From the NCBI GenBank assembly GCA_965198225.1, contig CBDAOY010000009.1, positions 768,001-832,000 on the forward strand: a stretch of DNA of 64,000 nt, in the 5' to 3' direction. The position numbers and the translations under genes were made by a program. Source of the DNA: Terriglobia bacterium. Lineage in GTDB: Bacteria; Acidobacteriota; Terriglobia; 20CM-2-55-15. This document shows, piece by piece, positions 7,973 to 49,824 of this stretch (the stretch's first letter is position 1; every line of letters starts with the position of its first letter). The notes beneath the pieces are model-generated. The model searched no databases. It worked only from the letters and a program-made list of their open reading frames with translations, and was not told where the DNA came from.

Positions 7973-8380
7973 GCTCTCCGTCTCGCTGGCCGAACTCCGA
8001 GCACGGTTGTAGGAATTCCACTTGGCCGTATGGTCGTTAGCGTTCATCGGAAGTGCCGCGGCGAGCGCGGCCACAGGATGAGCGAGAAGTTCCCACCGCG
8101 GCAGTTTCGATAACAAGACTTGAAGGAGGGCGCTGGCCGAATGCGGCGGACGCGGTGGGCTATGGAGAAAGTAGCCGGAAGCGGGCCGGATCTGGAGTGG
8201 CGTTGGGGCGAGGAGGGGGACCGGCGGTCGATGACCGCGTCGATGGTGTGAATCGGAAAGCAGTTGGGTCGGGGAATCGGTGGGTTGAAAGGACGGGATC
8301 TGAGGGGATTTTGCAGCGGAGGCACACTCCGGCGAGGACGTGGCTGAACCGCACGTCGGTCGTCGGTTTGTGAAGGAGGA

Positions 8381-9550
8381 TTAGGACGTATCGCATTGGA
8401 AGGCGAGCCTCGCTACGAGTTGCAGAGCGGTGAAGCGTTGGATGAGAGTCATCGGTCCCTGACAGTGCGGACACGACCAGGAAGAGTTCGAGGTGGTGGT
8501 TTCGTCAGATTCGACCCTCGGCATGGCATCGAGGAGTTGGCGACAGAGAGCGAAGGCGGCCGACCGGCGGTAGTTGGCCATGAATCCGAAGTGTCGGATG
8601 CGGACGAAGCCCTTCGGCAGAACGTGCAATAAGAACCGTCGGATGAACTCGTCGGCCGCGAGTGTCATGATGCGACTCTTGTTGCCATTGCGGTAATCCC
8701 GCCAACGGAACCGGACCCGGTTACCGTCAAACGAGATCAATCGATGGTTGGAGATGGCGACCCGATGGGTGTAGCGGCCCAGGTAGCGGAGCACCTGTTC
8801 GGGGCCACCAAAGGGTCGTTTGATATAGACGACCCAGTTGCGGGAATGGATCTGGCGGCGGAACCGCCGAAAGTGTTGCGGTTCGCCGAAGGGTCGAATC
8901 GAGCCGGACAGTTCGAGCGAACCGTCGGCGATCGCTCGCCCGAGCCCGTCGATGAACTTGCCACGGAAGACTCGGGCGAGCACCTGCTTGGGGAGGAAGA
9001 AGCGCCCAGAACCCGGAATCCAACGGGACTGATCCGGAGCCAGTCCGCCGGCCGGTACCACGCAGTGGATGTGGGGATGGAACTCCAGGTTCTGACTCCA
9101 GGTATGCAGGATGCCGAAGAAGCCGATCCGGGCGCCGAGTCGTTTCGGATTGGCCGCCACCTCGATCATCGTGTCGGCCACGCTGCGAAACAGCAGGCTG
9201 TAGAGTAGGGCAGGGTTGTGGAAGAAGAACGGATGGAACTGGTGCGGGACGGTGAACACGACGTGGAAGTAGGGGGTGGGCAGCAGTTCGGCTTCTCGTG
9301 CTTCGAGCCACCGTCGTCGGGCCTGGGTCTGACACTTCGGGCAGTGGCGGTTGCGGCAGGAGTTGAACGAGATTCCGGACTCCCGGCCACAATCGGCACA
9401 CCGGTCGATGTGGCCACCCAGAGCCGCAGTACGACAGTTCAGGATGGCGCGCAGGACCTTGAGCTTCTGGATGCCGAGGCGGTGACGCTGGAGGAAACCT
9501 CGAACCCGGGCGCGGACGATGTCGGCCACCTCGACGGCGGGCCGGCTCAT
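8381..9550 (-). CDS. IS91 family (HUH, Y2) transposase
   Basis: Cys-rich zinc-binding N-terminus (SCRNRHCPKC), HPHIH HUH motif, YLGRY; start overlaps the integrase stop (ATGA). Confidence 0.93.
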   Translation of the reverse strand: MSRPAVEVADIVRARVRGFLQRHRLGIQKLKVLRAILNCRTAALGGHIDRCADCGRESGISFNSCRNRHCPKCQTQARRRWLEAREAELLPTPYFHVVFTVPHQFHPFFFHNPALLYSLLFRSVADTMIEVAANPKRLGARIGFFGILHTWSQNLEFHPHIHCVVPAGGLAPDQSRWIPGSGRFFLPKQVLARVFRGKFIDGLGRAIADGSLELSGSIRPFGEPQHFRRFRRQIHSRNWVVYIKRPFGGPEQVLRYLGRYTHRVAISNHRLISFDGNRVRFRWRDYRNGNKSRIMTLAADEFIRRFLLHVLPKGFVRIRHFGFMANYRRSAAFALCRQLLDAMPRVESDETTTSNSSWSCPHCQGPMTLIQRFTALQLVARLAFQCDTS

Positions 9551-10437
9551 TCGCCTTTCTTCTTTCTCAGACGGGGAGACGGTCCCAGATCGGGAACCGG
9601 AAGAGAATCGATCGGGTTCACCACGCGCTGCATGTGCGCCTGAGACAAATGGAGATAGAGGGTCGTCGCTTCCAGATCGACATGACCCAACAGGAGCTGG
9701 ATGGTTCGCAGGTCGGTTCCCCTCTCCAGCAGGTGGGTGGCCCAGCTGTGGCGCAGCGTATGTGGGGATACTTTCTTTTTGATGCCGGCACGTTGGGCGG
9801 CTTGTTGGACGGCGTACCAAACCGTCTTCACATCGATGGGCTGTCCGGGCCGGGTCCGGAGCAAACTGGGGAAGAGGTACTCGCCGGGTTTCCGCCAACG
9901 CCAGTAGTCGCGCAGGACTTCCAGCAGTTTCGGTGACAGCGGCACGTCGCGGTCGCGATTGCCTTTACCCTGCCTCACATGGATCACCATGCGTTCGCTA
10001 TCGACGTCCTCGACCTTCAGACGACACAGCTCGGCCCGCCGCAGTCCCGTCGAATACAAGGTCATCAGGATGACGAAGTGATAGGCACTGTTGGCGGAGG
10101 CCAGCAGTTGCGCCACTTCCTCTTCGCTCAGAATCGTGGGCAACCGGGACGGCTGTTTCGGATAGACCAGATCGACCTGGTGATAGGGACGGCGAAGCAC
10201 CTTCACGTAGAAGAACCGGAGTGCGGCGATCCGTCCGATGATGGTGTCGACAGCGAGCTTGCGCTCCTGAAGCAGATGCAGCTGGTACTGCCGCATCTGT
10301 TCCTGTTCGAGCTTGTCGGGGGACTTCCCGAAGTAGCGGGCGAAGTCTTCGACCGCGTGAAGATACAGCCGAATCGTAGCGGGTGAGTAGTTCCGGCGCT
10401 GGAGTTCCTCCAGCATCCGTTGTCGCAGCTTCGTCAT
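9547..10437 (-). CDS. Tyrosine recombinase/integrase
   Basis: SAM-like N-terminus; GLRRAE, HTLRHSWATH, LLGH and TTLY catalytic motifs; GGAGG RBS. Confidence 0.95.
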   Translation of the reverse strand: MTKLRQRMLEELQRRNYSPATIRLYLHAVEDFARYFGKSPDKLEQEQMRQYQLHLLQERKLAVDTIIGRIAALRFFYVKVLRRPYHQVDLVYPKQPSRLPTILSEEEVAQLLASANSAYHFVILMTLYSTGLRRAELCRLKVEDVDSERMVIHVRQGKGNRDRDVPLSPKLLEVLRDYWRWRKPGEYLFPSLLRTRPGQPIDVKTVWYAVQQAAQRAGIKKKVSPHTLRHSWATHLLERGTDLRTIQLLLGHVDLEATTLYLHLSQAHMQRVVNPIDSLPVPDLGPSPRLRKKKGE

Positions 10438-10620
10438 GTGAGCCTCCTTGTGAGGCTCACACTCTATCGGGGGCTCATCACTCTTCGCTCAGCACACGCG
10501 TAGCGTCCGCCGCGCCAGCGGCTTCGTTCAAGTCGCCGATACGGAAAAGTGAATCGACCACGGCAAGATCGAGACGCTAGCGATACGCTTCTCGCCGATG
10601 TCTGATCGCAACAAGTGGGT

Positions 10621-10770
10621 CATCCACATTCCCTATCGTCGATACTTCCATGTAGATCTCGTCGAAAAGCCCCGTCTTACCTCGGTTTTTCCACTCTTCC
10701 GACCAGGCGGTGATACATCCATGTGACTGTTTGATTGCTACCAACCCCTTCCTGCCGTAGTATTTACGCA
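10621..10770 (+). promoter_or_regulatory. Spacer module: inverted palindrome pair plus promoter of kinase 2
   Basis: catccacattccctatcgtcgatacttccatgtagat (10621-10657); inverted copy at 10689-10727; TTGCTA-17 bp-TAGTAT. Confidence 0.6.
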
Positions 10771-10844
10771 AGTTTCAGCAAATTCGCGAAGTAATGCTCT
10801 GTAGTGGGGGTCTATGACCGCCGGCCTTTAGTTGGAGGCAACCC

Positions 10845-13469
10845 GTGTCGCTCGCAGCAGGCACACGCCTGGGTCCATACGAAATCGCCGACCAACTCGG
10901 TGCGGGCGGTATGGGAGAGGTGTATCGCGCCACCGACACCCGCCTCGACCGAACTGTAGCCATCAAAGTCCTGCCTGAACACCTCGCCTCCGACCCGCAA
11001 CGTCGGGAGCGCTTCGAGCGTGAAGCCAAAGCCGTCAGCAGCCTGAACCACCCGCACATCTGCACGCTCCACGACATCGGCGAACAGGACGGCATCCACT
11101 ACCTCGTCATGGAGTTGGTGGAGGGCGAGACGCTCCAGCAACGCTTGGAGAAAGGACGCCTGCCGCTCGATCAGGCACTGGAATACGCCATCCAGATCGC
11201 CGACGCCCTGGACAAAGCCCACCGGCAGGGCGTGGTCCACCGGGATCTGAAACCCGGAAACATCATGATCACGAAGTCGGCCGGTGTGAAGCTGCTCGAC
11301 TTCGGGCTGGCAAAGTTGAAGGGCGATGCTGCTGAAGTCTCACCACTGTCCCAGATGCCCACCCAGGACCCATCAGCACCCCTCACAGCCGAAGGGACCA
11401 TCATCGGCACGCTCCAGTACATGGCTCCCGAGCAATTGGAGGGTAAGGAAGCCGATGCCCGGACGGACATCTTCGCGTTCGGTGCTGTCGTGTACGAGAT
11501 GATCACGGGCAAGAAAGCGTTTGAGGGAGCGAGTCAGGCGAGTTTGGTCGGCGCGATTATGAATCAACAGCCAGCGCCGGTCACCGAGGTTCAGCCCGTT
11601 TCGCCACCTATGCTCGATCACGTCATCACGGCATGTCTCGCCAAGAATCCTGAAGATCGCTGGCAAACCGGTACGGACCTCGGGCGTGAACTCAAGTGGA
11701 TCGACGAAGTCGGAGCCCAGAACGGAACCGTTGCCGTCGAAACCGGGCACGGCGGTCGGGAGCGGGTCGCGTGGGTCGCGGCTACTGCCGTCCTGTTGAT
11801 CGCTTTGCTCATTCTGGTCACCACGAGAGTTGAGCCCCCAGCTGGAGCACCCGAAGCGGTTCGCTTTGCACTTTCCTTGCCGCCCGAGACCGTTCCCACC
11901 TCGACCCGGATCTCTCCCGACGGCAGCCGTCTGGCATACATCGCGCCGCGGTCTGACGGTACGAAAGTCGTATGGGTCCGTGCTCTGGGTTCTGTGGAGG
12001 CTCAACCGCTCGCGGGCACGGAGGGTGCCGGCAGTCTTTTCTGGTCGTCGGACAGCGCCCGACTGGGTGTAAATGTTTTGGGGCAGTTGCAGTCAATCGA
12101 CCTTGCCGTGGGGTCTCCCCAGACGGTGCACGACGGCATCTTCTCCCATGGAATTTGGAACGGTGACGGCGTCATCGTCTTCCGTGATCAGACTCAAAGG
12201 CAAATGTACCGCGCTCGGTCTGGAGGCGGCGAAGTCACGCTGTTGGACGTGGGCAACGGACTGGGAATCCCCATGGACTTTCTGCCAGACGAGGATCACT
12301 TCCTCTATAGGGCGGGTCCTTCTGTCTACATTGGTTCGCTCGAATCCGGGGAATCAAGCTTCCTATTCGACAGCCCATCCCCCGTCCTGTACTCCGACGG
12401 CTACCTCCTGTTTGTCCGGGGTGGAGCGTTGATGGCGCAACGTTTCGATCCAATCCAACTGAAGGTGGATGGGGAACCACAAGTCATCGACCAGCAGGTG
12501 GTTTCCCCGGACGTCACCCGACGCTACGACACGGCGTTCTCCGTTTCGCAGGACGGGACGTTGGCTTTTCGGCCCGGGACGGGTGTGGATGGACAATTGG
12601 TCTGGTCCGATCGCACGGGAGGCGAACTGGGTCGGATACAACAGCCACAATCGGGCGAGTATGTGAATCCATCGATCTCGCCGGACGGTCGACAGATTGC
12701 CGTGAACCGCAAGGACCCGTCGTCCGGGAACGTGGATATCTGGTTGATCGACGCGGAACGGGGCAGTCCTGAACGCTTTACGACGGACCCATCCTTCGAT
12801 GGGGATGCAGTCTGGTCCCCAGACGGCCGTCGGATTGCATTTAGCTCGAACCGAAGCGCACGGTGGGGCATCTGGGTGAAGGACGTCGCCGGGGGGGATG
12901 CGGAGTTACTAACGGATGTAGGGGTCCGCCGAATCACGCACTGGTCGAAGGACGGGCAGTTCATTCTTTACGATCACACCAGTTCCGATCGCGATGGTGA
13001 CGTGTGGGTACTGCCGGTTTCCGGAGAAGAGGAGCCGTGGCCCCTGTTGGATTCCGAGTTCATCGAGTATGGAGCGCGTTTCTCGCCGGACGGGAGTTGG
13101 GTTGCCTACAACTCCACCGAAACGGGCAAGTATGAAGTCCATGTCGCGAGCTTCCCGGGTGGCCGGGACAGACAACGTATCTCGCCTGGCGGAGGGGTTC
13201 ACCCGAGGTGGCAGGGCGATGGCAGCCGGCTGTTCTACGACAGCAGGAGTTTCGTGATGAGTGTCGCCATGGAAGTCGATTCTTCCGGACTTCAGATCGG
13301 TGTCTCTGAAGTGGCCATCGAGCCAAGGATCATGTTCTTAAGTGACAGTCGGAACCATTACGCAGTCACTCCTGACGGCGAGCGCCTCCTGTTGCGACGA
13401 CCAAGCCTCGATCCCCCACCGACCACCATCATCACCAACTGGACCTCCCTCCTCGAAGAAAACCAATGA
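10845..13469 (+). CDS. Receptor-type Ser/Thr kinase with TM and PD40 beta-propeller (kinase 2)
   Basis: GAGGMG, HRDLKPGN, DFG, YMAPE; TM segment; SPDG repeats; GGAGG RBS. Confidence 0.95.
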   Translation: MSLAAGTRLGPYEIADQLGAGGMGEVYRATDTRLDRTVAIKVLPEHLASDPQRRERFEREAKAVSSLNHPHICTLHDIGEQDGIHYLVMELVEGETLQQRLEKGRLPLDQALEYAIQIADALDKAHRQGVVHRDLKPGNIMITKSAGVKLLDFGLAKLKGDAAEVSPLSQMPTQDPSAPLTAEGTIIGTLQYMAPEQLEGKEADARTDIFAFGAVVYEMITGKKAFEGASQASLVGAIMNQQPAPVTEVQPVSPPMLDHVITACLAKNPEDRWQTGTDLGRELKWIDEVGAQNGTVAVETGHGGRERVAWVAATAVLLIALLILVTTRVEPPAGAPEAVRFALSLPPETVPTSTRISPDGSRLAYIAPRSDGTKVVWVRALGSVEAQPLAGTEGAGSLFWSSDSARLGVNVLGQLQSIDLAVGSPQTVHDGIFSHGIWNGDGVIVFRDQTQRQMYRARSGGGEVTLLDVGNGLGIPMDFLPDEDHFLYRAGPSVYIGSLESGESSFLFDSPSPVLYSDGYLLFVRGGALMAQRFDPIQLKVDGEPQVIDQQVVSPDVTRRYDTAFSVSQDGTLAFRPGTGVDGQLVWSDRTGGELGRIQQPQSGEYVNPSISPDGRQIAVNRKDPSSGNVDIWLIDAERGSPERFTTDPSFDGDAVWSPDGRRIAFSSNRSARWGIWVKDVAGGDAELLTDVGVRRITHWSKDGQFILYDHTSSDRDGDVWVLPVSGEEEPWPLLDSEFIEYGARFSPDGSWVAYNSTETGKYEVHVASFPGGRDRQRISPGGGVHPRWQGDGSRLFYDSRSFVMSVAMEVDSSGLQIGVSEVAIEPRIMFLSDSRNHYAVTPDGERLLLRRPSLDPPPTTIITNWTSLLEENQ

Positions 13470-16135: not shown

Positions 16136-16150
16136 GCGGCCCGGATCTGC

Positions 16151-16187
16151 ACTCCAACTCCCGATAAGCCTTCTCGGAGATGTGGAT
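16151..16187 (+). repeat. Palindromic spacer site (unoccupied)
   Basis: actccaactcccgata-agcctt-ctcggagatgtggat, 15 bp after the kinase 3 stop. Confidence 0.55.
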
Positions 16188-17955: not shown

Positions 17956-18011
17956 GGTGAGAGTTGCCACCGGGGCGCCGGCCAGTCGACACCGAAACCG
18001 CCGCGACCGCT

Positions 18012-21076: not shown

Positions 21077-21167
21077 CCTTCGCTGAGCGACCTTCCAACC
21101 ACCGCAACTCTCTTCCGACTACAGGAATCAGCAGTCCTCGACAATCCACGGGGATGTATGGCCGCCG

Positions 21168-21785
21168 ACACTCCAAGCTCGGACGTGAAGTCGCCATCAA
21201 GACCCTCCCCGAGGAGTTTGCCAATGACGGGGAGCGACTGGCCCTCTTTGAGCGTGAAGCGAAGCTACTCGCCTCGTTGAACCATCCGAACATCGCCACG
21301 TTCCACGGTTTGGAAGAAGACAACGGTACCCGGTTTCTCGTCTTGGAACTCGTTGAAGGCGACACGCTGGCGTACAGGCTGAAGCGCGGCGCCATCCCCG
21401 TCGAAGAATCCCTCAAGCTCGCGCTCCAGATCGCCGAAGCGCTCGAAGCCGCTCACGAGAAGGGCATCATCCTCCGGGTCCTGAAACCCGCAAAAATAAA
21501 AGTCACACCCGACGGCAAGCTGAAGGTCCTGGATTTCGGTCTGGCGAAGGCATTTGCGGGGGATGGTTCCGACGTGAACTTGTCGCACTCCCCAACGATT
21601 AGCATGGCGGCGACGCAGCAGGGCACGATTCTCGGAACGGCCGCATACATGTCCCCCGAGCAAGCCAAGGGACGCGAGATCGACAAGAGGACCGACATAT
21701 GGGCCTTTGGCTGCGTGCTCTACGAAATGCTCATAGGCCGATCCGCCTTTGGCGGTGAAGACGTTGCGGATACGCTTGCGTTCGT
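21168..21785 (+). pseudogene. Degenerate kinase catalytic-domain fragment
   Basis: Starts at [10 protein letters not shown] (no P-loop); HRDLKPAN changed to LRVLKPAK; homology ends near EDVADTLA. Confidence 0.88.
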
Positions 21786-22014
21786 GGGGATAAGTAAAAT
21801 AGGAGGGGTTGGCAGTGTAGGGTGTGTGGGAAGCGCAGCCGAGGCCAACCTGGTGCCGGAGGCTCGCGGCCGGGTGGTTTCCCAGCCCGGCATACTGGTT
21901 TCACAGGCGGTTCCAACGCATGGACACGTTGATTTGCACGGGCCAGTACGCTACTTTTGAATGTCGTTTTTTCGATATGGATTACAGAGCGCGATATCAA
22001 AGAAAGACCAACCT

Positions 22015-22782
22015 ATGACACCCATTCTGCGTCTATTTCGAATCCTGCTGCCGGGCATCATAGTGGGCATCGCTTTGAATGCGGCATTCCAGACCAGCGC
22101 GTACAGTCAAGCCCCAGAAGGGTCACCTACAAGAGCGTATAAGCCGCGCCCGCCGGAAGGTAAAGTTCCCATTCTCTGGATTGGTGGTGGCGACTGGCAC
22201 GATACATTGAATAACGCCGGTATCCTGCGATGGTACCTTGAAGCAGCGGGTCCTTACCACATCACTTACACCGAGGATTATGACGTGTTCACCCGCCTGC
22301 GCCCATATCGCGTGGTCGTGATGCATCACCAGGCCCGCAGTATCACAAATGCTGAAGAGCGTGCCCTGCTGGATGCGGTTTCAGCAGGGAAGCCGGTCGT
22401 GGCCCTGCACTCCAGCACGGCGGCGCTCCGGGTTGAAGGGCACGAGCGTCCCAAATATCACGCACTGCTGGGCGCGCGGTTTCTCAAACACCCTCCCCAA
22501 CACGACTTTCGCGTAACGCTGACCGACCGCGCTCATCCCATCCTCAGCGGGCTGGACGATTTCAACATCTGGGACGAGCTCTATATGTTTGACAGTCTCC
22601 AGCCCGATCGCCATGTGTTGATGACCGCGGACTTTGAGGGAACTACCTATCCTATCGCCTGGACCCGGCAGCATGGAAAGGGGAAGGTGTTCTACACGGC
22701 ACTGGGGCACGGCGTCGAGGCCAACAGCAACCCACACTTTCAGCGCCTCGTCCACCAGGCAATCGAATGGGCCCTGGAGTAA
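22015..22782 (+). CDS. ThuA-like (class I GATase-like fold) exported protein
   Basis: GGGDWHD, VALHSS, WDELY, PIAWTRQHGKGKVFYTALGH; hydrophobic N-terminus. Confidence 0.85.
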   Translation: MTPILRLFRILLPGIIVGIALNAAFQTSAYSQAPEGSPTRAYKPRPPEGKVPILWIGGGDWHDTLNNAGILRWYLEAAGPYHITYTEDYDVFTRLRPYRVVVMHHQARSITNAEERALLDAVSAGKPVVALHSSTAALRVEGHERPKYHALLGARFLKHPPQHDFRVTLTDRAHPILSGLDDFNIWDELYMFDSLQPDRHVLMTADFEGTTYPIAWTRQHGKGKVFYTALGHGVEANSNPHFQRLVHQAIEWALE

Positions 22783-22829: not shown

Positions 22830-22927
22830 CCACGCCGCGGCCGGACAGCCAGTCAAATCCTTCACTGCAGATCAACGTCGTCTTGAACTGGACGGAAGAA
22901 CTAAAGGAACGGGTGCCGGTGCCCTAT
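22830..22927 (+). pseudogene. Kinase 3'-tail remnant
   Basis: Translates ...QINVVLNWTEELKERVPVP. Confidence 0.9.
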
Positions 22928-23343
22928 TCGCCGCCACCGAACCTCCCCGACAGCGTCTCGGTTTGCCACTCTGTTTCAATCCACATGCTCGAAAAGTCGT
23001 TAGCGTTCATCGGAAGTGCCGCGGCGAGCGCGGCCACAGGATGAGCGAGAAGTTCCCACCGCGGCAGTTTCGATAACAAGACTTGAAGGAGGGCGCTGGC
23101 CGAATGCGGCGGACGCGGTGGGCTATGGAGAAAGTAGCCGGAAGCGGGCCGGATCTGGAGTGGCGTTGGGGCGAGGAGGGGGACCGGCGGTCGATGACCG
23201 CGTCGATGGTGTGAATCGGAAAGCAGTTGGGTCGGGGAATCGGTGGGTTGAAAGGACGGGATCTGAGGGGATTTTGCAGCGGAGGCACACTCCGGCGAGG
23301 ACGTGGCTGAACCGCACGTCGGTCGTCGGTTTGTGAAGGAGGA

Positions 23344-24513
23344 TTAGGACGTATCGCATTGGAAGGCGAGCCTCGCTACGAGTTGCAGAGCGGTGAAGCG
23401 TTGGATGAGAGTCATCGGTCCCTGACAGTGCGGACACGACCAGGAAGAGTTCGAGGTGGTGGTTTCGTCAGATTCGACCCTCGGCATGGCATCGAGGAGT
23501 TGGCGACAGAGAGCGAAGGCGGCCGACCGGCGGTAGTTGGCCATGAATCCGAAGTGTCGGATGCGGACGAAGCCCTTCGGCAGAACGTGCAATAAGAACC
23601 GTCGGATGAACTCGTCGGCCGCGAGTGTCATGATGCGACTCTTGTTGCCATTGCGGTAATCCCGCCAACGGAACCGGACCCGGTTACCGTCAAACGAGAT
23701 CAATCGATGGTTGGAGATGGCGACCCGATGGGTGTAGCGGCCCAGGTAGCGGAGCACCTGTTCGGGGCCACCAAAGGGTCGTTTGATATAGACGACCCAG
23801 TTGCGGGAATGGATCTGGCGGCGGAACCGCCGAAAGTGTTGCGGTTCGCCGAAGGGTCGAATCGAGCCGGACAGTTCGAGCGAACCGTCGGCGATCGCTC
23901 GCCCGAGCCCGTCGATGAACTTGCCACGGAAGACTCGGGCGAGCACCTGCTTGGGGAGGAAGAAGCGCCCAGAACCCGGAATCCAACGGGACTGATCCGG
24001 AGCCAGTCCGCCGGCCGGTACCACGCAGTGGATGTGGGGATGGAACTCCAGGTTCTGACTCCAGGTATGCAGGATGCCGAAGAAGCCGATCCGGGCGCCG
24101 AGTCGTTTCGGATTGGCCGCCACCTCGATCATCGTGTCGGCCACGCTGCGAAACAGCAGGCTGTAGAGTAGGGCAGGGTTGTGGAAGAAGAACGGATGGA
24201 ACTGGTGCGGGACGGTGAACACGACGTGGAAGTAGGGGGTGGGCAGCAGTTCGGCTTCTCGTGCTTCGAGCCACCGTCGTCGGGCCTGGGTCTGACACTT
24301 CGGGCAGTGGCGGTTGCGGCAGGAGTTGAACGAGATTCCGGACTCCCGGCCACAATCGGCACACCGGTCGATGTGGCCACCCAGAGCCGCAGTACGACAG
24401 TTCAGGATGGCGCGCAGGACCTTGAGCTTCTGGATGCCGAGGCGGTGACGCTGGAGGAAACCTCGAACCCGGGCGCGGACGATGTCGGCCACCTCGACGG
24501 CGGGCCGGCTCAT
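23344..24513 (-). CDS. IS91 family transposase
   Basis: Translation identical to 8381-9550. Confidence 0.93.
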   Translation of the reverse strand: MSRPAVEVADIVRARVRGFLQRHRLGIQKLKVLRAILNCRTAALGGHIDRCADCGRESGISFNSCRNRHCPKCQTQARRRWLEAREAELLPTPYFHVVFTVPHQFHPFFFHNPALLYSLLFRSVADTMIEVAANPKRLGARIGFFGILHTWSQNLEFHPHIHCVVPAGGLAPDQSRWIPGSGRFFLPKQVLARVFRGKFIDGLGRAIADGSLELSGSIRPFGEPQHFRRFRRQIHSRNWVVYIKRPFGGPEQVLRYLGRYTHRVAISNHRLISFDGNRVRFRWRDYRNGNKSRIMTLAADEFIRRFLLHVLPKGFVRIRHFGFMANYRRSAAFALCRQLLDAMPRVESDETTTSNSSWSCPHCQGPMTLIQRFTALQLVARLAFQCDTS

Positions 24514-25400
24514 TCGCCTTTCTTCTTTCTCAGACGGGGAGACGGTCCCAGATCGGGAACCGGAAGAGAATCGATCGGGTTCACCACGCGCTGCATGTGC
24601 GCCTGAGACAAATGGAGATAGAGGGTCGTCGCTTCCAGATCGACATGACCCAACAGGAGCTGGATGGTTCGCAGGTCGGTTCCCCTCTCCAGCAGGTGGG
24701 TGGCCCAGCTGTGGCGCAGCGTATGTGGGGATACTTTCTTTTTGATGCCGGCACGTTGGGCGGCTTGTTGGACGGCGTACCAAACCGTCTTCACATCGAT
24801 GGGCTGTCCGGGCCGGGTCCGGAGCAAACTGGGGAAGAGGTACTCGCCGGGTTTCCGCCAACGCCAGTAGTCGCGCAGGACTTCCAGCAGTTTCGGTGAC
24901 AGCGGCACGTCGCGGTCGCGATTGCCTTTACCCTGCCTCACATGGATCACCATGCGTTCGCTATCGACGTCCTCGACCTTCAGACGACACAGCTCGGCCC
25001 GCCGCAGTCCCGTCGAATACAAGGTCATCAGGATGACGAAGTGATAGGCACTGTTGGCGGAGGCCAGCAGTTGCGCCACTTCCTCTTCGCTCAGAATCGT
25101 GGGCAACCGGGACGGCTGTTTCGGATAGACCAGATCGACCTGGTGATAGGGACGGCGAAGCACCTTCACGTAGAAGAACCGGAGTGCGGCGATCCGTCCG
25201 ATGATGGTGTCGACAGCGAGCTTGCGCTCCTGAAGCAGATGCAGCTGGTACTGCCGCATCTGTTCCTGTTCGAGCTTGTCGGGGGACTTCCCGAAGTAGC
25301 GGGCGAAGTCTTCGACCGCGTGAAGATACAGCCGAATCGTAGCGGGTGAGTAGTTCCGGCGCTGGAGTTCCTCCAGCATCCGTTGTCGCAGCTTCGTCAT
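24510..25400 (-). CDS. Tyrosine recombinase/integrase
   Basis: Translation identical to 9547-10437. Confidence 0.95.
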   Translation of the reverse strand: MTKLRQRMLEELQRRNYSPATIRLYLHAVEDFARYFGKSPDKLEQEQMRQYQLHLLQERKLAVDTIIGRIAALRFFYVKVLRRPYHQVDLVYPKQPSRLPTILSEEEVAQLLASANSAYHFVILMTLYSTGLRRAELCRLKVEDVDSERMVIHVRQGKGNRDRDVPLSPKLLEVLRDYWRWRKPGEYLFPSLLRTRPGQPIDVKTVWYAVQQAAQRAGIKKKVSPHTLRHSWATHLLERGTDLRTIQLLLGHVDLEATTLYLHLSQAHMQRVVNPIDSLPVPDLGPSPRLRKKKGE

Positions 25401-25629
25401 GTGAGCCTCCTTGTGAGGCTCACACTCTATCGGGGGCTCATCACTCTTCGCTCAGCACACGCGTAGCGTCCGCCGCGCCAGCGGCTTCGTTCAAGTCGCC
25501 TATGCTCCCATGTGGATCTTGCCAGAAAGGCCCCGTTTCAGGCGCTTCGCAGGTTTCTCCGTATCGGCGGCGTTACAGGATATTGCCTTCCTGATTGACC
25601 CCAAGTCCGTTCCGTAGTCTGATCTAGGC

Positions 25630-29290: not shown

Positions 29291-29351
29291 CCTGTGAGAC
29301 TCCCCCAAAAATCTCCTCAGCGGTGTTTCTGAGAATCCACATCCCCGAGAA

Positions 29352-30139
29352 GTCGTTAGCGTTCATCGGAAGTGCCGCGGCGAGCGCGGCCACAGGATGA
29401 GCGAGAAGTTCCCACCGCGGCAGTTTCGATAACAAGACTTGAAGGAGGGCGCTGGCCGAATGCGGCGGACGCGGTGGGCTATGGAGAAAGTAGCCGGAAG
29501 CGGGCCGGATCTGGAGTGGCGTTGGGGCGAGGAGGGGGACCGGCGGTCGATGACCGCGTCGATGGTGTGAATCGGAAAGCAGTTGGGTCGGGGAATCGGT
29601 GGGTTGAAAGGACGGGATCTGAGGGGATTTTGCAGCGGAGGCACACTCCGGCGAGGACGTGGCTGAACCGCACGTCGGTCGTCGGTTTGTGAAGGAGGAT
29701 TAGGACGTATCGCATTGGAAGGCGAGCCTCGCTACGAGTTGCAGAGCGGTGAAGCGTTGGATGAGAGTCATCGGTCCCTGACAGTGCGGACACGACCAGG
29801 AAGAGTTCGAGGTGGTGGTTTCGTCAGATTCGACCCTCGGCATGGCATCGAGGAGTTGGCGACAGAGAGCGAAGGCGGCCGACCGGCGGTAGTTGGCCAT
29901 GAATCCGAAGTGTCGGATGCGGACGAAGCCCTTCGGCAGAACGTGCAATAAGAACCGTCGGATGAACTCGTCGGCCGCGAGTGTCATGATGCGACTCTTG
30001 TTGCCATTGCGGTAATCCCGCCAACGGAACCGGACCCGGTTACCGTCAAACGAGATCAATCGATGGTTGGAGATGGCGACCCGATGGGTGTAGCGGCCCA
30101 GGTAGCGGAGCACCTGTTCGGGGCCACCAAAGGGTCGTT
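29352..30139 (-). mobile_element. Truncated copy 3 of the IS91/recombinase element (3' part of transposase only)
   Basis: Matches 8033-8820, then stops at an internal GTCGTT. Confidence 0.9.
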
Positions 30140-30919: not shown

Positions 30920-31268
30920 TCGCGGGATGAGCAACGGCCCGGCCCGGGCTTCTAGTGGCCTGTAACAGTATGAATGTACGATGCCACCACATCCTTTACA
31001 CATGACGTCAGGACATCCTTTTCAGGTTTGGAGTGGAATCAGTTGACACAGCTTCGGCAAGCGAAACTCTAGGATTGGGTGTAGGGGCGCTCTATGAGCG
31101 CACAGATTCCAGCCAAACCACTGTGGCGTGTAACAGTGCCTTTTTCGTTTTACACACATGATTGGAACCGCCTCGGGAGGGCAGTGTCTACTTGCTATCT
31201 GGTTCCGTATGTAATAGAAAGATAGGCAGGATAATTACGTATACCTGACTGAACCGGACAAGACAATT

Positions 31269-41860: not shown

Positions 41861-41865
41861 GGCCC

Positions 41866-42846: not shown

Positions 42847-43817
42847 CCGGCCTGCTCGAGGTCCGGAATCTGAAAAAGTACTTTCCCGTGCGCGGCGGCG
42901 TACTCCGCCGAGTCGTCGCCCAGGTCCGAGCCGTCGATGACGTGAGCTTTTCGATCGGTCGCGGCCGGACGCTCGGGCTCGTTGGCGAATCGGGTTGCGG
43001 CAAATCGACCCTCGGCCGTGCCGTGCTTCGCCTGCATGAGCCGACCGCAGGGGAGGTCGTCCTCGATGGGCGCCCGGTGACTGGCCTGAAGGCACGTGAG
43101 CTCAGGGAGCGCCGGCGGGAAATGCAGATCGTGTTTCAGGATCCCTATGCGTCGCTGAATCCGCGCCGAACTGTGCTCCAGACGCTACGGGAGCCGCTCG
43201 ACCTGCATGCAATCGGTACGCGCGCCGAGCGGCGCCGCCGTGTCGAGGAGCTGCTCGAGATCGTCGGACTCAGGGCCCAAGTCGCGTCCCGCTACCCGCA
43301 CGAGTTTTCGGGCGGACAACGCCAGCGCATCGGCATCGCGCGGGCGCTCGCACTCGATCCGAAGCTCATCGTCGCCGATGAGGCCGTCTCGGCGCTCGAC
43401 GTGTCTGTGCAGGCGCAAGTGCTCAATCTGATTTCGGATCTACAGCGACGACTCGGAATCTCGTTCCTGTTTATCTCCCACGATCTTGCCGTCATCCAGC
43501 ATGTCTCGCACGACGTCTGCGTCATGTATCTGGGTAAGCTCGTCGAAACGGGATCGGCCGACAGCGTCTATGCCGAACCGAAGCATCCGTATACGCGCGC
43601 GCTGTTTTCCGCCGTGCCGGTTCCGGATCCGCTTCGAAAGTCACGCCGCATCGTGCTGCCCGGCGACGTCCCGTCGCCGGCCAATCCCCCGCCGGGCTGC
43701 CCGTTTCACACGCGGTGCCCGGAAGTGCGGCCCGAGTGCCGGCGGCTCATGCCGGCCACGATCGACGTCGGCAGCGGCGCCACGCCGCATCGGGTGGCCT
43801 GTCATCTATACACCTGA
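42843..43817 (+). CDS. Peptide ABC transporter ATPase (OppF/DppF-like)
   Basis: [33 protein letters not shown]. Confidence 0.95.
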
Positions 43818-44285
43818 CTCGGGCTGCTATAGAAAGGTGTGCGTGAAAACGAGCGATACCGAATCTGCGGAATCGCCGAGAATCTCGAAGCGCTCGTATT
43901 CGAGGCTGTCCTGGCGAATTGCTAATTGGCCTCGCAATCCGTTGAAAGATATCCGATCTTCTGATTGCGGTAGAGACAGCTTCAATTGTCCGAATCGCGT
44001 GCTTGGGAATACTTCCGTTTACTCCAAATAAGCGACGTACTCCGCCCCGAATCCCTTCCCTACGTCCGACACCCCTTGAACGAAATCAACGACTTGGACC
44101 ATGGGCCGGGAGCCCTTTAGGTGACGGCCATTCCGCTAAGCTGGACGTCGATCATCCAGAGGGTTGATGGAGATTTCGGCGGGCAGCCACCGCCGCATGA
44201 AACGAGGGCAGATCTCCGAGTATGCGGTTTACCAGGACTTGAGCTTCTGATTGACGCCAACTCCCTCCTGTAGTCTTATTTAGGC

Positions 44286-46991
44286 GTGATCGAGCCCGGC
44301 TCAAGACTTGCACACTACGAAGTCGTTTCCGCCCTTGGCAAGGGCGGCATGGGCGAGGTGTGGCGTGCGCGTGACACAAAATTGCGGCGCGATGTTGCGA
44401 TCAAGGTCCTGCCGGACGCGGTCGCACGGGAACCCGAGCACCTGTCCCGCTTCCGGCGTGAAGCACGAGCCTTGGCCGCGCTGAATCATCCGAACATTTC
44501 GGCCATCTACGGTCTGGAAGAACACGATCAGATTCATTTCCTCGTCCTGGAACTGGTTGAAGGCGACACCCTCTCGGACCTGCTCGCGGGCGGCCCCTTT
44601 CCGATTACTGAATCCCTTCGTATCGGTGCCCAAATCGCCGAGGCCCTCGGAGCGGCCCACGACAAAGGGATCGTGCACCGGGACCTGAAGCCGGCGAACA
44701 TCAAAGTCACACCTGACGGTCAGGTCAAGGTCCTCGACTTTGGGCTGGCAAAGGCGTTTTCCGGCGAGGGCGACGCCGACCTGTCGTGGGCTTTAACCAT
44801 CACGGAAACCGTCGAAAGCCGGAAAGGGAGGTTGGTCGGAACGCCAGCCTACATGAGCCCTGAACAGGCGCAAGGTCAGCAGATCGACAAGCGAACTGAC
44901 ACCTGGGCTTTCGGCTGTGTGCTCTTCGAGATGCTGGTTGGCAAGCGCCCATTTGCAGGAATTACCCTGTCCGACACGATCGCCCGAGTACTGGAGCGGG
45001 ACCCTGACTGGGATGCGTTGCCCAAGGGAACGCCAGCGAGGATGCGTGATCTGCTGGAACGTTGCCTGGAAAAGGATGCTCGAAACCGGCAACGGGATTT
45101 TGGGGATGTGCGGATCGAGATCGAGCGCGCTCTGTCGGAGACGGTGATCCCGTCACACGAAGTTTCCTCGGCATCGGGACTGCCATTGAACCGGGTGATC
45201 TCAGCCGTGGTTGTCGTTGGATTGATAAGCGTCGCGACCGGCCTCATCATCTGGAATTCCGGGTCGCCGGGGTTGGAGACGGTTTCCGGACCACCCCGAC
45301 TGGAGAACATCGAACGCCTCACCAGTCTGCCGGGAAACGAAAGCCAACCGGCCTGGTCTCCAGATGCGCAATTCGTAGCTTTTACTTCAGGAACATCCGG
45401 AAACAGAGACATCTGGATCAAGGCGGTCAGCGGAGGTGAACCGATCCAACTGACCCACCATGAGGCTGATGACTACACTCCGGACTGGTCGCCTGACGGA
45501 AAGCAGATCGTATTCCGTTCGAACCGTACAAATGGTGGGCTGTACACAATAGATGCTTTTGGGGGCGATGCGCGGCGCATTGCCGATTTCGGCTACCGGC
45601 CCCGTTGGTCACCGGACGGTCGGCAGGTTGTCTTTCAGCTGCGAGGCGGAACCCTGATACCCAACGAGATCTATGTCTTGGATTATCCGCCCGACGAACC
45701 GCCTCAGAAGTTACTGGCATGGGAAGACGGTCAAGATCCATATACCAACGCCGACTGGTCGCCCGACGGCGAGTATCTCGTTTACCGAACCGGCCAATAT
45801 GTGGCCGGGCCAGGTGTTGCCATCGCGGCCGTAGAGAATCCCAGCGATCAGTTCTTCCTGGAAGTTGACGGCGAGAAACTTAGGTTCGCGCAACCAGTTT
45901 GGGCCAGGGACGGCAGAGGAATCATTGGTGTGCGCAGTTCCGGTCGGACTGGTGGCGCCTTGTGGTACGCCGGGCTGGACCAAAATCGCCGAGCCACTTC
46001 AATTTCGCGGTTGACCACCGGGGTGGGGGATGGCAACCCCGATGTTACACGGGATGGAAAGCGGCTCGCATACACAACCGCTGCCGGCCACTTTGACATT
46101 TGGAAAGTAGAGCTGGATCTCAGATCGGGTCAGCCTGCCGGAGATCCGAAGCCGTTGATCGGGAGCCCGTCAAACGATGAGTTCCCGGCCATTCTCCCTG
46201 ACGACCGCCACGTACTCTTCATTTCGGATCGGGCCAACGAGCGGCATCTATACGTTTCCGATCCCGAAGGTGGCGACGTCCGCCTGGTCGACAACAGCCG
46301 AGACTGGGGGCGCATCCCTTCGGTTTCGCCCGACGGCAGATGGGTCGCCTTGCAGGTTGGACCGCCTACTGAAACCTATCTGATTCCGTTCGATCCGGTA
46401 ACCCAGCAGGCCTTAGGTTCGCCTAGAAGTGTCGGCGTACAGGCCGCGTCCAACTGGTCGCCGGATGGGAAGTACCTTTTGTTTACAGGTTCCGATGTGC
46501 TTGGATCTGGGGGAATCGATGTGCTGGACCTGTCTGGCAGTGAAGCGAAGAAAGTCTTCTGGCCTTTCAGTGCTGGCTTCCTGGAGAAGTATCCGAGGAA
46601 GATCATTGGCTATTTCTCCCGCGACGGTAACTGGATCGCGTTCGGCGCGTACAAAGAGCGCGACAAACCCGCAATCTTCGTTGTCAGACCCGGGTCGACC
46701 GAGCCGCACTTGATCTGGGAAGGGGCCGCAAACCCGATGTGGGGGCCAACCATGGAAAAGATCTATATGTGGTCGGAGCGTCCGGATGAAACTCAGGGCA
46801 GACTGGGCTTTGTTGTATTCGATACAGAGACAGGGGCACCGACGAGCGACTTCCAGCCTTTGAACCTGGAACAAAGTGCACGATCGGGCTACAGTGCGGC
46901 GTCGATAAGCAGTGATGGAAAGTGGTTAGTCTATTTCTCCGAAACGGTCGAAGGCGACATCTATGTTGCCGATCTCGTGCCCTCAAGTTGA
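44286..46991 (+). CDS. Receptor-type Ser/Thr kinase with TM and PD40 repeats (kinase 4)
   Basis: Full kinase motifs, TM, many WSPDG repeats; preceded by the same ttctgattgacgccaa...tagtcttatt motif. Confidence 0.95.
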   Translation: MIEPGSRLAHYEVVSALGKGGMGEVWRARDTKLRRDVAIKVLPDAVAREPEHLSRFRREARALAALNHPNISAIYGLEEHDQIHFLVLELVEGDTLSDLLAGGPFPITESLRIGAQIAEALGAAHDKGIVHRDLKPANIKVTPDGQVKVLDFGLAKAFSGEGDADLSWALTITETVESRKGRLVGTPAYMSPEQAQGQQIDKRTDTWAFGCVLFEMLVGKRPFAGITLSDTIARVLERDPDWDALPKGTPARMRDLLERCLEKDARNRQRDFGDVRIEIERALSETVIPSHEVSSASGLPLNRVISAVVVVGLISVATGLIIWNSGSPGLETVSGPPRLENIERLTSLPGNESQPAWSPDAQFVAFTSGTSGNRDIWIKAVSGGEPIQLTHHEADDYTPDWSPDGKQIVFRSNRTNGGLYTIDAFGGDARRIADFGYRPRWSPDGRQVVFQLRGGTLIPNEIYVLDYPPDEPPQKLLAWEDGQDPYTNADWSPDGEYLVYRTGQYVAGPGVAIAAVENPSDQFFLEVDGEKLRFAQPVWARDGRGIIGVRSSGRTGGALWYAGLDQNRRATSISRLTTGVGDGNPDVTRDGKRLAYTTAAGHFDIWKVELDLRSGQPAGDPKPLIGSPSNDEFPAILPDDRHVLFISDRANERHLYVSDPEGGDVRLVDNSRDWGRIPSVSPDGRWVALQVGPPTETYLIPFDPVTQQALGSPRSVGVQAASNWSPDGKYLLFTGSDVLGSGGIDVLDLSGSEAKKVFWPFSAGFLEKYPRKIIGYFSRDGNWIAFGAYKERDKPAIFVVRPGSTEPHLIWEGAANPMWGPTMEKIYMWSERPDETQGRLGFVVFDTETGAPTSDFQPLNLEQSARSGYSAASISSDGKWLVYFSETVEGDIYVADLVPSS

Positions 46992-47452
46992 GGTTACAGG
47001 GATAGTGATGTGCTGTGCCGGCTCTGCGACTTCCGTCACCAGAAGAAAGAGTACAAATGATCCGAACCAGAGGTCTGCCATCGCGAGCTTCAGATGCCCG
47101 TATAGTCGTTAGCGTTCATCGGAAGTGCCGCGGCGAGCGCGGCCACAGGATGAGCGAGAAGTTCCCACCGCGGCAGTTTCGATAACAAGACTTGAAGGAG
47201 GGCGCTGGCCGAATGCGGCGGACGCGGTGGGCTATGGAGAAAGTAGCCGGAAGCGGGCCGGATCTGGAGTGGCGTTGGGGCGAGGAGGGGGACCGGCGGT
47301 CGATGACCGCGTCGATGGTGTGAATCGGAAAGCAGTTGGGTCGGGGAATCGGTGGGTTGAAAGGACGGGATCTGAGGGGATTTTGCAGCGGAGGCACACT
47401 CCGGCGAGGACGTGGCTGAACCGCACGTCGGTCGTCGGTTTGTGAAGGAGGA

Positions 47453-48622
47453 TTAGGACGTATCGCATTGGAAGGCGAGCCTCGCTACGAGTTGCAGAGC
47501 GGTGAAGCGTTGGATGAGAGTCATCGGTCCCTGACAGTGCGGACACGACCAGGAAGAGTTCGAGGTGGTGGTTTCGTCAGATTCGACCCTCGGCATGGCA
47601 TCGAGGAGTTGGCGACAGAGAGCGAAGGCGGCCGACCGGCGGTAGTTGGCCATGAATCCGAAGTGTCGGATGCGGACGAAGCCCTTCGGCAGAACGTGCA
47701 ATAAGAACCGTCGGATGAACTCGTCGGCCGCGAGTGTCATGATGCGACTCTTGTTGCCATTGCGGTAATCCCGCCAACGGAACCGGACCCGGTTACCGTC
47801 AAACGAGATCAATCGATGGTTGGAGATGGCGACCCGATGGGTGTAGCGGCCCAGGTAGCGGAGCACCTGTTCGGGGCCACCAAAGGGTCGTTTGATATAG
47901 ACGACCCAGTTGCGGGAATGGATCTGGCGGCGGAACCGCCGAAAGTGTTGCGGTTCGCCGAAGGGTCGAATCGAGCCGGACAGTTCGAGCGAACCGTCGG
48001 CGATCGCTCGCCCGAGCCCGTCGATGAACTTGCCACGGAAGACTCGGGCGAGCACCTGCTTGGGGAGGAAGAAGCGCCCAGAACCCGGAATCCAACGGGA
48101 CTGATCCGGAGCCAGTCCGCCGGCCGGTACCACGCAGTGGATGTGGGGATGGAACTCCAGGTTCTGACTCCAGGTATGCAGGATGCCGAAGAAGCCGATC
48201 CGGGCGCCGAGTCGTTTCGGATTGGCCGCCACCTCGATCATCGTGTCGGCCACGCTGCGAAACAGCAGGCTGTAGAGTAGGGCAGGGTTGTGGAAGAAGA
48301 ACGGATGGAACTGGTGCGGGACGGTGAACACGACGTGGAAGTAGGGGGTGGGCAGCAGTTCGGCTTCTCGTGCTTCGAGCCACCGTCGTCGGGCCTGGGT
48401 CTGACACTTCGGGCAGTGGCGGTTGCGGCAGGAGTTGAACGAGATTCCGGACTCCCGGCCACAATCGGCACACCGGTCGATGTGGCCACCCAGAGCCGCA
48501 GTACGACAGTTCAGGATGGCGCGCAGGACCTTGAGCTTCTGGATGCCGAGGCGGTGACGCTGGAGGAAACCTCGAACCCGGGCGCGGACGATGTCGGCCA
48601 CCTCGACGGCGGGCCGGCTCAT
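47453..48622 (-). CDS. IS91 family transposase
   Basis: Translation identical to copy 1. Confidence 0.93.
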   Translation of the reverse strand: MSRPAVEVADIVRARVRGFLQRHRLGIQKLKVLRAILNCRTAALGGHIDRCADCGRESGISFNSCRNRHCPKCQTQARRRWLEAREAELLPTPYFHVVFTVPHQFHPFFFHNPALLYSLLFRSVADTMIEVAANPKRLGARIGFFGILHTWSQNLEFHPHIHCVVPAGGLAPDQSRWIPGSGRFFLPKQVLARVFRGKFIDGLGRAIADGSLELSGSIRPFGEPQHFRRFRRQIHSRNWVVYIKRPFGGPEQVLRYLGRYTHRVAISNHRLISFDGNRVRFRWRDYRNGNKSRIMTLAADEFIRRFLLHVLPKGFVRIRHFGFMANYRRSAAFALCRQLLDAMPRVESDETTTSNSSWSCPHCQGPMTLIQRFTALQLVARLAFQCDTS

Positions 48623-49509
48623 TCGCCTTTCTTCTTTCTCAGACGGGGAGACGGTCCCAGATCGGGAACCGGAAGAGAATCGATCGGGTTCACCACGCGC
48701 TGCATGTGCGCCTGAGACAAATGGAGATAGAGGGTCGTCGCTTCCAGATCGACATGACCCAACAGGAGCTGGATGGTTCGCAGGTCGGTTCCCCTCTCCA
48801 GCAGGTGGGTGGCCCAGCTGTGGCGCAGCGTATGTGGGGATACTTTCTTTTTGATGCCGGCACGTTGGGCGGCTTGTTGGACGGCGTACCAAACCGTCTT
48901 CACATCGATGGGCTGTCCGGGCCGGGTCCGGAGCAAACTGGGGAAGAGGTACTCGCCGGGTTTCCGCCAACGCCAGTAGTCGCGCAGGACTTCCAGCAGT
49001 TTCGGTGACAGCGGCACGTCGCGGTCGCGATTGCCTTTACCCTGCCTCACATGGATCACCATGCGTTCGCTATCGACGTCCTCGACCTTCAGACGACACA
49101 GCTCGGCCCGCCGCAGTCCCGTCGAATACAAGGTCATCAGGATGACGAAGTGATAGGCACTGTTGGCGGAGGCCAGCAGTTGCGCCACTTCCTCTTCGCT
49201 CAGAATCGTGGGCAACCGGGACGGCTGTTTCGGATAGACCAGATCGACCTGGTGATAGGGACGGCGAAGCACCTTCACGTAGAAGAACCGGAGTGCGGCG
49301 ATCCGTCCGATGATGGTGTCGACAGCGAGCTTGCGCTCCTGAAGCAGATGCAGCTGGTACTGCCGCATCTGTTCCTGTTCGAGCTTGTCGGGGGACTTCC
49401 CGAAGTAGCGGGCGAAGTCTTCGACCGCGTGAAGATACAGCCGAATCGTAGCGGGTGAGTAGTTCCGGCGCTGGAGTTCCTCCAGCATCCGTTGTCGCAG
49501 CTTCGTCAT
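48619..49509 (-). CDS. Tyrosine recombinase/integrase
   Basis: Translation identical to copy 1. Confidence 0.95.
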   Translation of the reverse strand: MTKLRQRMLEELQRRNYSPATIRLYLHAVEDFARYFGKSPDKLEQEQMRQYQLHLLQERKLAVDTIIGRIAALRFFYVKVLRRPYHQVDLVYPKQPSRLPTILSEEEVAQLLASANSAYHFVILMTLYSTGLRRAELCRLKVEDVDSERMVIHVRQGKGNRDRDVPLSPKLLEVLRDYWRWRKPGEYLFPSLLRTRPGQPIDVKTVWYAVQQAAQRAGIKKKVSPHTLRHSWATHLLERGTDLRTIQLLLGHVDLEATTLYLHLSQAHMQRVVNPIDSLPVPDLGPSPRLRKKKGE

Positions 49510-49824
49510 GTGAGCCTCCTTGTGAGGCTCACACTCTATCGGGGGCTCATCACTCTTCGCTCAGCACACGCGTAGCGTCCGCCGCGCCAGCGGCTTCGTT
49601 CAAGTCGCCTATGCTCCCATGTGGATCTTGCCAGAAAGGCCCCATTTCAGGCGGTTTCCAGTTTTCCGTATCGGAGGTCTATGAGGACCTGCTTCTGTTG
49701 TTGCTTCCAAACTTCCCACCTAGATAGACTTACCAGAATTTCGTAACCGGGTAAGACGCCTCGCGACCTAGGATCACACTGGAGGTCCGGCCGGAAAAGG
49801 TCGAGGGCCGGCGCATAAGGCACC

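Follow-up and report, generated by a model that had tools for sequence, protein, structure and literature searches.

Why should a transposable element whose nominal target is four bases long enter one kind of short repeat so regularly? The question is raised by a 64,000-nucleotide stretch of a Terriglobia bacterium assembly (GCA_965198225.1, contig CBDAOY010000009.1, positions 768,001 to 832,000; hereafter the window), in which a sequence-only reading had described four copies of an element with a tyrosine recombinase gene and an IS91-like transposase gene, each said to lie at the GTCG core of a palindrome. We identify this insertion sequence (IS) as an ISAzo26-type member of the IS91 family, and find its insertion to be specific for one repeat, to which we give the name PAL, and for one orientation: this applied to all ten copies in the source genome (G000; 6.4 Mb, 9 contigs, 97% complete) and, with these included, to 22 of the 28 copies of its lineage across five genomes. 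The lineage of the window element and its close relatives is called A-type here, and its sister lineages B and C. Taking the evidence together, we think it fairly probable that this ISAzo26-type element moves by a rolling-circle mechanism, targets the GTCG at the PAL centre, is a recent parasite of the repeats, and reads the PAL sequence with its own machinery.

Insertion at the PAL repeat

The source genome holds ten left and eight right ends of the element. GTCG stood at all ten left junctions and at all eight right ends, and a variant of the PAL left half-site (~17 nt) followed by GTCG preceded every left end; a matching right half followed seven of the eight right ends, the eighth being degenerate. 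The half-sites varied from copy to copy, while the IS copies and their interiors were 98.9-100% identical. Of the 45 pairings of 1.5-kb left flanks, 42 showed no relationship and three had no more than 103 nt in common. Since the left flanks are unrelated and the half-sites differ, the PAL sites predate the insertions. A profile built from the restored sites also recovered empty PAL copies, 24 of which were aligned; these read straight through one GTCG, a central GTCG being present in 19 of the 24, and occupied PAL made up about 10 of 29 usable sites.

The proposal that GTCG serves as an IS91-style target was borne out, the tetranucleotide flanking the origin side, closing the element itself and occurring a single time in empty sites. 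It was also rightly judged too common to account for the hits: the genome contains 113,127 GTCG sites, which excludes chance for ten PAL hits out of ten. GTCG alone is thus insufficient, and an extended context is therefore needed. The 29 plus-strand GTCGs inside the IS are never used as ends. Even GTCG[CA]C occurs at 17,981 sites in the genome, and a 12-position local consensus, built after the fact, matched 259 genome sites, five of them in PAL.

PAL is a ~45-bp intergenic repeat with a dyad-symmetric consensus, in which outer arms (TCCAC/GTGGA) and inner arms enclose an asymmetric centre of 6-8 nt containing GTCG; because this centre is asymmetric, insertion always takes one orientation. 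About 34 copies occur in five clusters, nearly all copies of a cluster lying on one strand (42 nhmmer matches including half-sites; 23 covariance-model matches), and by eye an inverted copy of one arm often follows ~50 nt after PAL. The copies in the window sit between open reading frames (ORFs). Four of them are empty, all on the plus strand: 2060-2120 and 5118-5178, both with a central GTCG, the latter ~100 nt upstream of a kinase gene (5276-7972); 10609-10669, ~70 nt past the right end of copy 1; and 51361-51421, whose centre reads ATCG and so lacks the target tetranucleotide. Rfam gave no match to PAL at gathering score in the whole window, and none at E up to 1 in 1900-11000.

By covariance model, PAL was present in three genera of the family (3/3, 4/5 and 2/2 genomes) and in 0/9 and 0/5 genomes of two other genera. 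It also occurred in genomes G012 and G024, where no full A-type element was found among the five candidates scored per genome. The PAL copies, as host repeats, have diverged from one another, whereas those of the IS are identical, and we therefore take the IS for a parasite that reached the repeats recently. The sequence-only reading had left it open whether the element mobilises the array or parasitises it; this contrast, together with PAL occurring without a full A-type copy, favours a parasite over a mobiliser, yet one copy did take ~520 adjacent bases along.

All four window copies share one orientation, as had been stated. Three are complete (copy 1, 8037-10535; copy 2, 23000-25498; copy 4, 47109-49607), each spanning 2,499 bp if the element is taken to start with the base that follows the target GTCG and to finish with its terminal GTCG, with genes on the minus strand and no mismatch among them. 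Copy 3 (29356-30139, minus strand) is a 784-bp origin-side (left-end) fragment joined to unrelated unique DNA at 30139/30140; its truncation at an internal GTCG was considered and is unproven, identity continuing 2 nt past that GTCG. On the plus strand, PAL left halves with GTCG lie at 8016-8036, 22980-22999, 29336-29355 and, in degenerate form, 47089-47108 for copies 1 to 4, and right halves at 10536-10551, 25499-25516 and 49608-49625 for copies 1, 2 and 4. GTCG at both junctions, as claimed, was therefore found for 4/4 left junctions and the 3/3 ends of complete copies, copy 3 having no right junction, and the claimed four palindrome hits reduce to three restorable sites. Removing copy 1 restores the palindrome exactly as described; at copy 2 the 7-bp outer arms pair but the interior is non-complementary, and the restored site of copy 4 is a poor palindrome, its halves matching at 10 of 16 arm positions in our own count. 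To the right, copies 2 and 4 have 73 nt of flank in common at 92% identity.

The copies had further been placed 60-115 bp past the end of a kinase gene. This is so for copies 1 and 4, whose GTCG lies 60 and 113 nt after the stop codons of a Ser/Thr kinase with PD40 repeats (5276-7972, plus strand) and of its paralog (44286-46991, plus strand), but copies 2 and 3 follow unrelated ORFs, for a ThuA-domain protein and a CDP-alcohol phosphatidyltransferase, respectively. Upstream of copy 2, tblastn found a 19-residue remnant of a kinase C-terminus (22868-22924, plus strand; 79% identity, E 7e-5); upstream of copy 3, kinase resemblance was limited to DNA motifs and was not picked up by tblastn. At 21154-22782, the N-terminal 268 residues of a kinase run directly into the ThuA-domain ORF, which together with the remnant suggests a kinase gene broken by rearrangement. 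Beyond copy 3, a 46-nt stretch (~31058-31103) recurs on six or more contigs with 93-96% identity, and an overlapping 166-nt stretch has one more copy at C9:265718.

The element, its movement and its relatives

The upstream gene encodes Int, a 296-aa Xer-like tyrosine recombinase (9547-10437, 24510-25400 and 48619-49509 in copies 1, 2 and 4, minus strand) with PF00589 (Phage_integrase) and PF13495 (SAM_4) domains. It scored 223 bits against the XerA-type NCBIfam model NF040815, while its match to the integron-integrase model TIGR02249 was split in two pieces with model positions 177-237 unmatched; the catalytic columns R, K, H, R, H and Y were invariant among 34 aligned sequences. The downstream gene encodes Tnp, a 389-aa IS91-family Y2 HUH transposase (8381-9550, 23344-24513 and 47453-48622, minus strand) matching PF04986 (Y2_Tnp, 211 bits), the zinc-binding PF14319 (105 bits) and NF033538 (432.6 bits, cut-off 125), with HPHxH and Y-x3-Y columns invariant among 33 aligned sequences. 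The 505-aa tnp ORF reflects an over-extended start, the true start being set by alignment to the B-lineage protein. The int stop and tnp start overlap as ATGA, and int is predicted to be translationally coupled to tnp.

Non-coding ends frame the two genes: an origin-side end downstream of tnp (8037-8380 in copy 1, ~345 nt), whose first ~145 nt are conserved in lineages A, B and C, and a terminus-side end upstream of int (10438-10535, ~100 nt), whose last four bases are GTCG. By eye, neither end is an inverted copy of the other, and there is no target-site duplication, empty sites having one GTCG. The element thus combines the features of the IS91 family: its Y2 HUH transposase has a zinc-binding domain at the N-terminus, its ends are not inverted repeats, and it inserts in one orientation beside a tetranucleotide shared with the terminus. 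The position of int, which immediately precedes tnp and lies on the same strand, places it in the ISAzo26-type subgroup, and ISAzo26 is its closest named relative. Among the copies elsewhere in G000, one is split by an insert of ~4.3 kb near the terminus end (C6:346378-348811 with 342005-342075), and another has an internal deletion (C4:64330-66569).

In the IS91 model, as set out in the accounts of PMC5714925 and PMC10288648 that bear on it, insertion is oriented and adjacent to a tetranucleotide, without inverted ends or duplication. Several signs in the sequences studied here would fit such rolling-circle movement. Head-to-tail tandems share one tetranucleotide (tandem pairs lie 2,506 bp apart in the B-lineage burst of genome G002), and gene-less miniatures retain both ends. 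Moreover, two copies on different contigs (C9a and C6b) are followed at both loci by the same ~520 nt of right flank (97.7% identical), and this shared stretch stops exactly at the GTCG of the next PAL, having passed two other GTCGs in our own scan. Given this endpoint and the 29 unused internal GTCGs, strand termination appears to make the same context-dependent choice as targeting, and the segment is suggestive of the transposition machinery itself recognising PAL. Two loci of G002 (L038 and L039) have an 11-nt remnant between two GTCGs before a full copy, ~15 nt ahead of the left end; this may be the start of a left end fused to the tail of a right end via a shared CGTTC, as an excision or deletion scar. 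At L160 (record title: Acidobacteriota genome), the opening ~25 nt of the origin end are repeated several times in short tandem units ahead of a full left end.

Element matches of some kind were found in 42 of 60 related soil Acidobacteria genomes, and metagenomes yielded thousands of homologous proteins. Close A-type relatives (85-86% identical) in genomes G002, G020 and G003, and as miniatures in G015, likewise use GTCG; these genomes are kin rather than independent samples. By eye, flanks of PAL type were present at 7/9 copies in G002, 1/2 in G020, 1/2 in G003 and 3/5 miniatures in G015. The tetranucleotide is lineage-specific (GTCG, AACG, AAAC or ACCG). The B lineage, with at least 31 near-identical copies in G002 (99.7-99.9%; loci L040-L050 and L094-L113), uses AACG, and its Int and Tnp are intact and 64% and 62% identical to those of the A-type. 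Arm complementarity at B-lineage sites was not above background (mean 4.68 vs 4.67; 22 unique complete sites of 31 fetched), although 8 of the 22 shared a 6-nt motif after AACG and one was a perfect palindrome. Thus the B lineage, with both genes intact, inserts mostly outside any PAL-like repeat, and the lack of a palindrome excess at its sites means that the presence of Int alone does not impose palindrome targeting.

The C lineage (G015) uses AAAC and has conserved, non-palindromic flanks in 10 sites, which remained from 13 fetched after two tandem members and one truncated copy were dropped. GTCG-type elements in records titled as other orders or phyla (21 insertions) have a different conserved flank of ~15 nt. 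Context beyond the tetranucleotide is therefore common in the int-bearing group, and its identity is lineage-specific. Diverged copies of a further lineage in G000 have the junction ACCG and by eye also adjoin PAL halves; they lie at C6 ~643,100-645,730 and, in truncated form, at C7 ~935,270-936,620, and are 72-80% identical. L150, a GTCG-type copy from another order, carries a frameshift, and its Int and Tnp are both ~55-57% identical and in fragments. The relatives of Int form a continuous series from 88 to 73% identity, while those of Tnp jump from 80% to 66%; the difference may stem from exchange of modules, from a higher rate of change in Tnp or from the way in which candidates were selected.

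What reads the repeat

The sequence-only reading had assigned the specificity to the palindrome. The need for an extended context stands, but palindromy itself is probably not what is read, given that the PAL copies show no covariation and fold weakly. Arm positions paired in 55.3% of cells, compared with 30-38% when the partner was slid and 59.0% in shuffles; there was no excess of covariation among PAL copies and no compensatory change. In single-strand folding, only 2 of 12 empty PAL copies did better than shuffles, and 6 of 12 z-scores were positive. Specificity seems to lie in the PAL sequence rather than in a hairpin.

Other structural or sequence cues were tried and rejected. Minimum free energy of the 60-nt restored sites gave mean z values of -0.90 in G000 and +0.41 in G002. 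Matches between 16-nt arms averaged 10.25 against 8.37 in shuffles for G000, with no excess for lineages B and C, and 9-nt inner arms showed no excess in any set. Mimicry of the origin end, with the left flank pairing with a conserved box ~10 nt inside that end and the right flank copying it, was not a general rule: in local alignment against random sites with the same tetranucleotide, p was 0.51 and 0.95 for the G000 copies and 0.75 and 0.69 for the sets from other phyla (21 and 8 flanks), and it was low (0.008 and 0.02) only in the AAAC lineage.

How, then, would the element find PAL? In the mechanism we propose, cleavage of the plus strand would fall 3' of three GTCGs, those of the origin-side junction, the element's terminus and the target, and the transposition machinery would read ~40 bp of PAL sequence, not a hairpin. 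We favour the transposase as the putative reader, with Int as a putative accessory, because the same choice is made at termination, which in the IS91 model is a reaction of the transposase. Our order of preference accordingly runs from the transposase complex through Int-assisted targeting to structure.

Several observations weigh against the proposal as a whole or against parts of it. Five of the ten copies in G000 are packed into a single 50-kb stretch, and one pair has a right flank in common, which leaves fewer than ten events that are fully independent. A survey of flanks had been suggested by the sequence-only reading, with insertion at arbitrary GTCG sites named as the contrary outcome: left ends in G000 lay in PAL in 10/10 cases, but 6 of the 28 A-type copies across five genomes lie outside recognisable PAL flanks. 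PAL calls in G002, G020, G003 and G015 were made by eye against the consensus. Copy placement depends on the assemblies; public contigs of four runs over 6500-12000 gave no joint that skips the element and no record bridging a junction by 31 letters on each side, their depth being unreadable as copy number, and a search of same-genus genomes with the flanks of copy 4 for orthologous empty sites gave only partial matches of 69-81% and no usable synteny. A family-wide target matrix from the 21 GTCG-type insertions in other phyla was rejected as an explanation of PAL, which it ranks 2,196 to 75,221 of 113,122 sites; judging by this weak ranking, the PAL preference is specific to the lineage. The ~520-nt segment could equally come from recombination at PAL centres or from homologous exchange between IS copies. 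As to which protein reads PAL, the transposase is favoured as a putative reader only.

The strongest competitor, raised by the sequence-only reading, is that the palindrome is a site for the Xer-like Int, which would bind the dyad arms of PAL in the way Xer binds dif and would bring in or place the HUH transposase there; this would then be the function of Int. Int does resemble Xer and IntI, with catalytic residues invariant in 34 sequences and a gene that overlaps tnp, and the inverted arms of PAL about an asymmetric centre of 6-8 nt have a dif-like layout. Int-bearing relatives of GTCG and AAAC type, furthermore, have flanks conserved for ~15 nt past the tetranucleotide, where classical IS91 is described with a tetranucleotide in the passages of PMC10288648 that treat it. 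However, the B lineage has both proteins intact and still inserts at 22 sites with no excess of arm complementarity, only eight of which share even a 6-nt motif. The insertion point also falls inside the PAL centre and not at its border, and the circle or tandem junction is by eye unlike PAL beyond A+GTCG, so that one recombinase binding both partners is not evident. A dif-like attB/attP pair would have shared arms and an identical overlap of 6-8 bp, whereas the junctions share, by eye, only A+GTCG (4-5 nt). The conserved catalysis of Int suggests a role in strand exchange over one in tethering. We regard Int-assisted targeting as possible, though rather unlikely.

A reading of structure would instead have a PAL hairpin, formed on single-stranded DNA at replication forks or behind genes, present GTCG in its loop for cutting by the HUH transposase. 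Single-stranded DNA is the substrate of HUH enzymes and their sites generally have hairpins, according to the parts of PMC10288648 dealing with them, and the dyad symmetry of the PAL consensus exceeds that obtained with a slid partner. The results of the covariation and folding tests given above nevertheless argue against a hairpin, as do the occupied sites at copies 2 and 4, which are poor palindromes. The GTCG strand is the G-rich strand at 8/10 copies, but the skew is weak and five of the eight copies are in one cluster, and we rejected this strand bias as a cue. We think it quite improbable that structure is what is read. Finally, it is very improbable that the hits are merely dependent on one another, with PAL halves travelling with the element or with segmental duplication, gene conversion or homologous exchange inflating the four window hits: C9a and C6b do have a 523-nt right flank in common, copies 2 and 4 have the 73 nt noted above and the flanking kinases are paralogs, but the ten left flanks are unrelated past ~100 nt, PAL halves differ while 2.5-kb interiors are identical, 24 empty PALs exist, and PAL was found downstream of only 3 of 31 C-terminal kinase matches, in a nearest-PAL search that missed occupied sites.

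Comparison with known systems

ISfinder and TnPedia list a subgroup of IS91 elements in which the transposase gene is preceded by one for a tyrosine recombinase. The same two-gene order and orientation are found on a plasmid of Aromatoleum aromaticum EbN1, where the gene beside an annotated 'IS91-like element ISAzo26 family transposase' encodes a protein to which Int is 48.7% identical, and a Sinorhizobium plasmid has the same int-tnp pairing. The present element differs from these in targeting a defined repeat family. The literature searched yielded no target or Int role for the ISAzo26-type subgroup and no paper naming ISAzo26. At the ISAzo26 locus (L114, ~2283-2316), a perfect palindrome with a 15-bp stem lies against the int-side end, and a further copy of one arm is found close to the opposite end, which hints that an association with palindromes may extend to ISAzo26.

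Classical IS91 uses the tetranucleotides GTTC/CTTG. The present element uses GTCG, adds a recombinase gene, and has an effective target of ~40 bp instead of four. In other respects it is like IS91, IS801, IS1294 and the ISCR elements, which, as described in the relevant parts of PMC5714925 and PMC10288648, likewise combine a Y2 HUH transposase, zinc-binding at its N-terminus, with a lack of inverted ends and of target duplication and with oriented insertion at a tetranucleotide. Mobilisation of adjacent DNA when the terminus is missed, described for IS91-type elements in PMC5714925, can be compared with the ~520-nt segment.

The closest parallel in targeting is offered by the insertion sequences of repetitive extragenic palindromic (REP) sequences, namely IS1397, ISKpn1, IS621, ISPpu9/10, ISPa11 and ISRm22, which also insert in one orientation, with all or nearly all copies inside short intergenic palindromes. 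Ratios of association listed in Table 2 of PMC1525189 include 7/7 and 10/10, and the families concerned there are IS3, IS110, IS4, IS256 and IS5, IS91 being represented by only 1/7 copies in one Shigella genome. All of these REP-targeting families have DDE or DEDD transposases, unlike the HUH enzyme here. Targeting by IS110-type elements is RNA-guided, as reported in the portions of PMC11187229 and PMC11208160 concerned with it, whereas a guide within the present element was rejected, its non-coding ends having no 9-mer of the PAL consensus even with one mismatch allowed. PAL itself resembles REP in being a short, imperfect, intergenic palindrome, and the inverted arm ~50 nt on recalls the alternation in bacterial interspersed mosaic elements (BIMEs) described in the relevant part of PMC2817692. 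Its ~34 copies in five clusters nevertheless differ from the more than 100 dispersed copies of REP, and no gene of RAYT type (Y1) was detected, with no match to PF01797 in the 97%-complete genome.

The attC sites of integrons are invaded by IS1111-attC elements and group IIC-attC introns, and have AAC/GTT boxes at their ends. Similarly, PAL copies are co-oriented, imperfect palindromes between genes that are invaded by a site-specific mobile element, and Int is related to the integron integrases. However, Int is without the integron-specific segment (the unmatched TIGR02249 positions), and the outer arms of PAL, by eye, have no AAC/GTT boxes. An intI-type gene does occur in G000 outside the window (C6:488798-489706, L051), scoring 446.5 bits against TIGR02249, over the cut-off, with one in-frame TGA. 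It is more than 90 kb from any PAL, the nearest matches being at C6:342 kb and C6:583 kb, and a crude pattern scan of C6:470-520 kb (20-30 kb around the gene) found no attC-like site.

These likenesses allow the idea that the PAL arrays and the element are a rolling-circle counterpart of the integron, in which any DNA bounded by two PAL centres of the same orientation would be released by cuts at GTCG and carried as one piece into another PAL, in the manner of the ~520-nt segment, with Int reading the arms. We hold this to be improbable; if true, the clustered PALs with shuffled halves and the variable genes between them, kinases among others, would be products of the system and not mere landing pads.

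A rolling-circle element of the IS91 kind with a recombinase gene is thus known, and what is new is the targeting of a repeat family by an IS91-family element: the literature searched, which did not extend to ISfinder or TnPedia, holds no earlier report of such targeting, nor of the role of the recombinase. IS91-type elements are usually treated as near-promiscuous, with a four-base target. Our results indicate that an element of this type can be much more site-specific than that textbook target suggests, and they add a sixth, mechanistically different IS family to those that home to palindromic intergenic repeats. The sister lineages, which have the same two genes but differ in tetranucleotide and in strictness of context, form a comparative series for target choice by HUH transposases and for the part played by the recombinase. 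The ~520-nt segment is also suggestive of a route by which neighbouring DNA may be moved, the centre of a repeat serving as a surrogate terminus.

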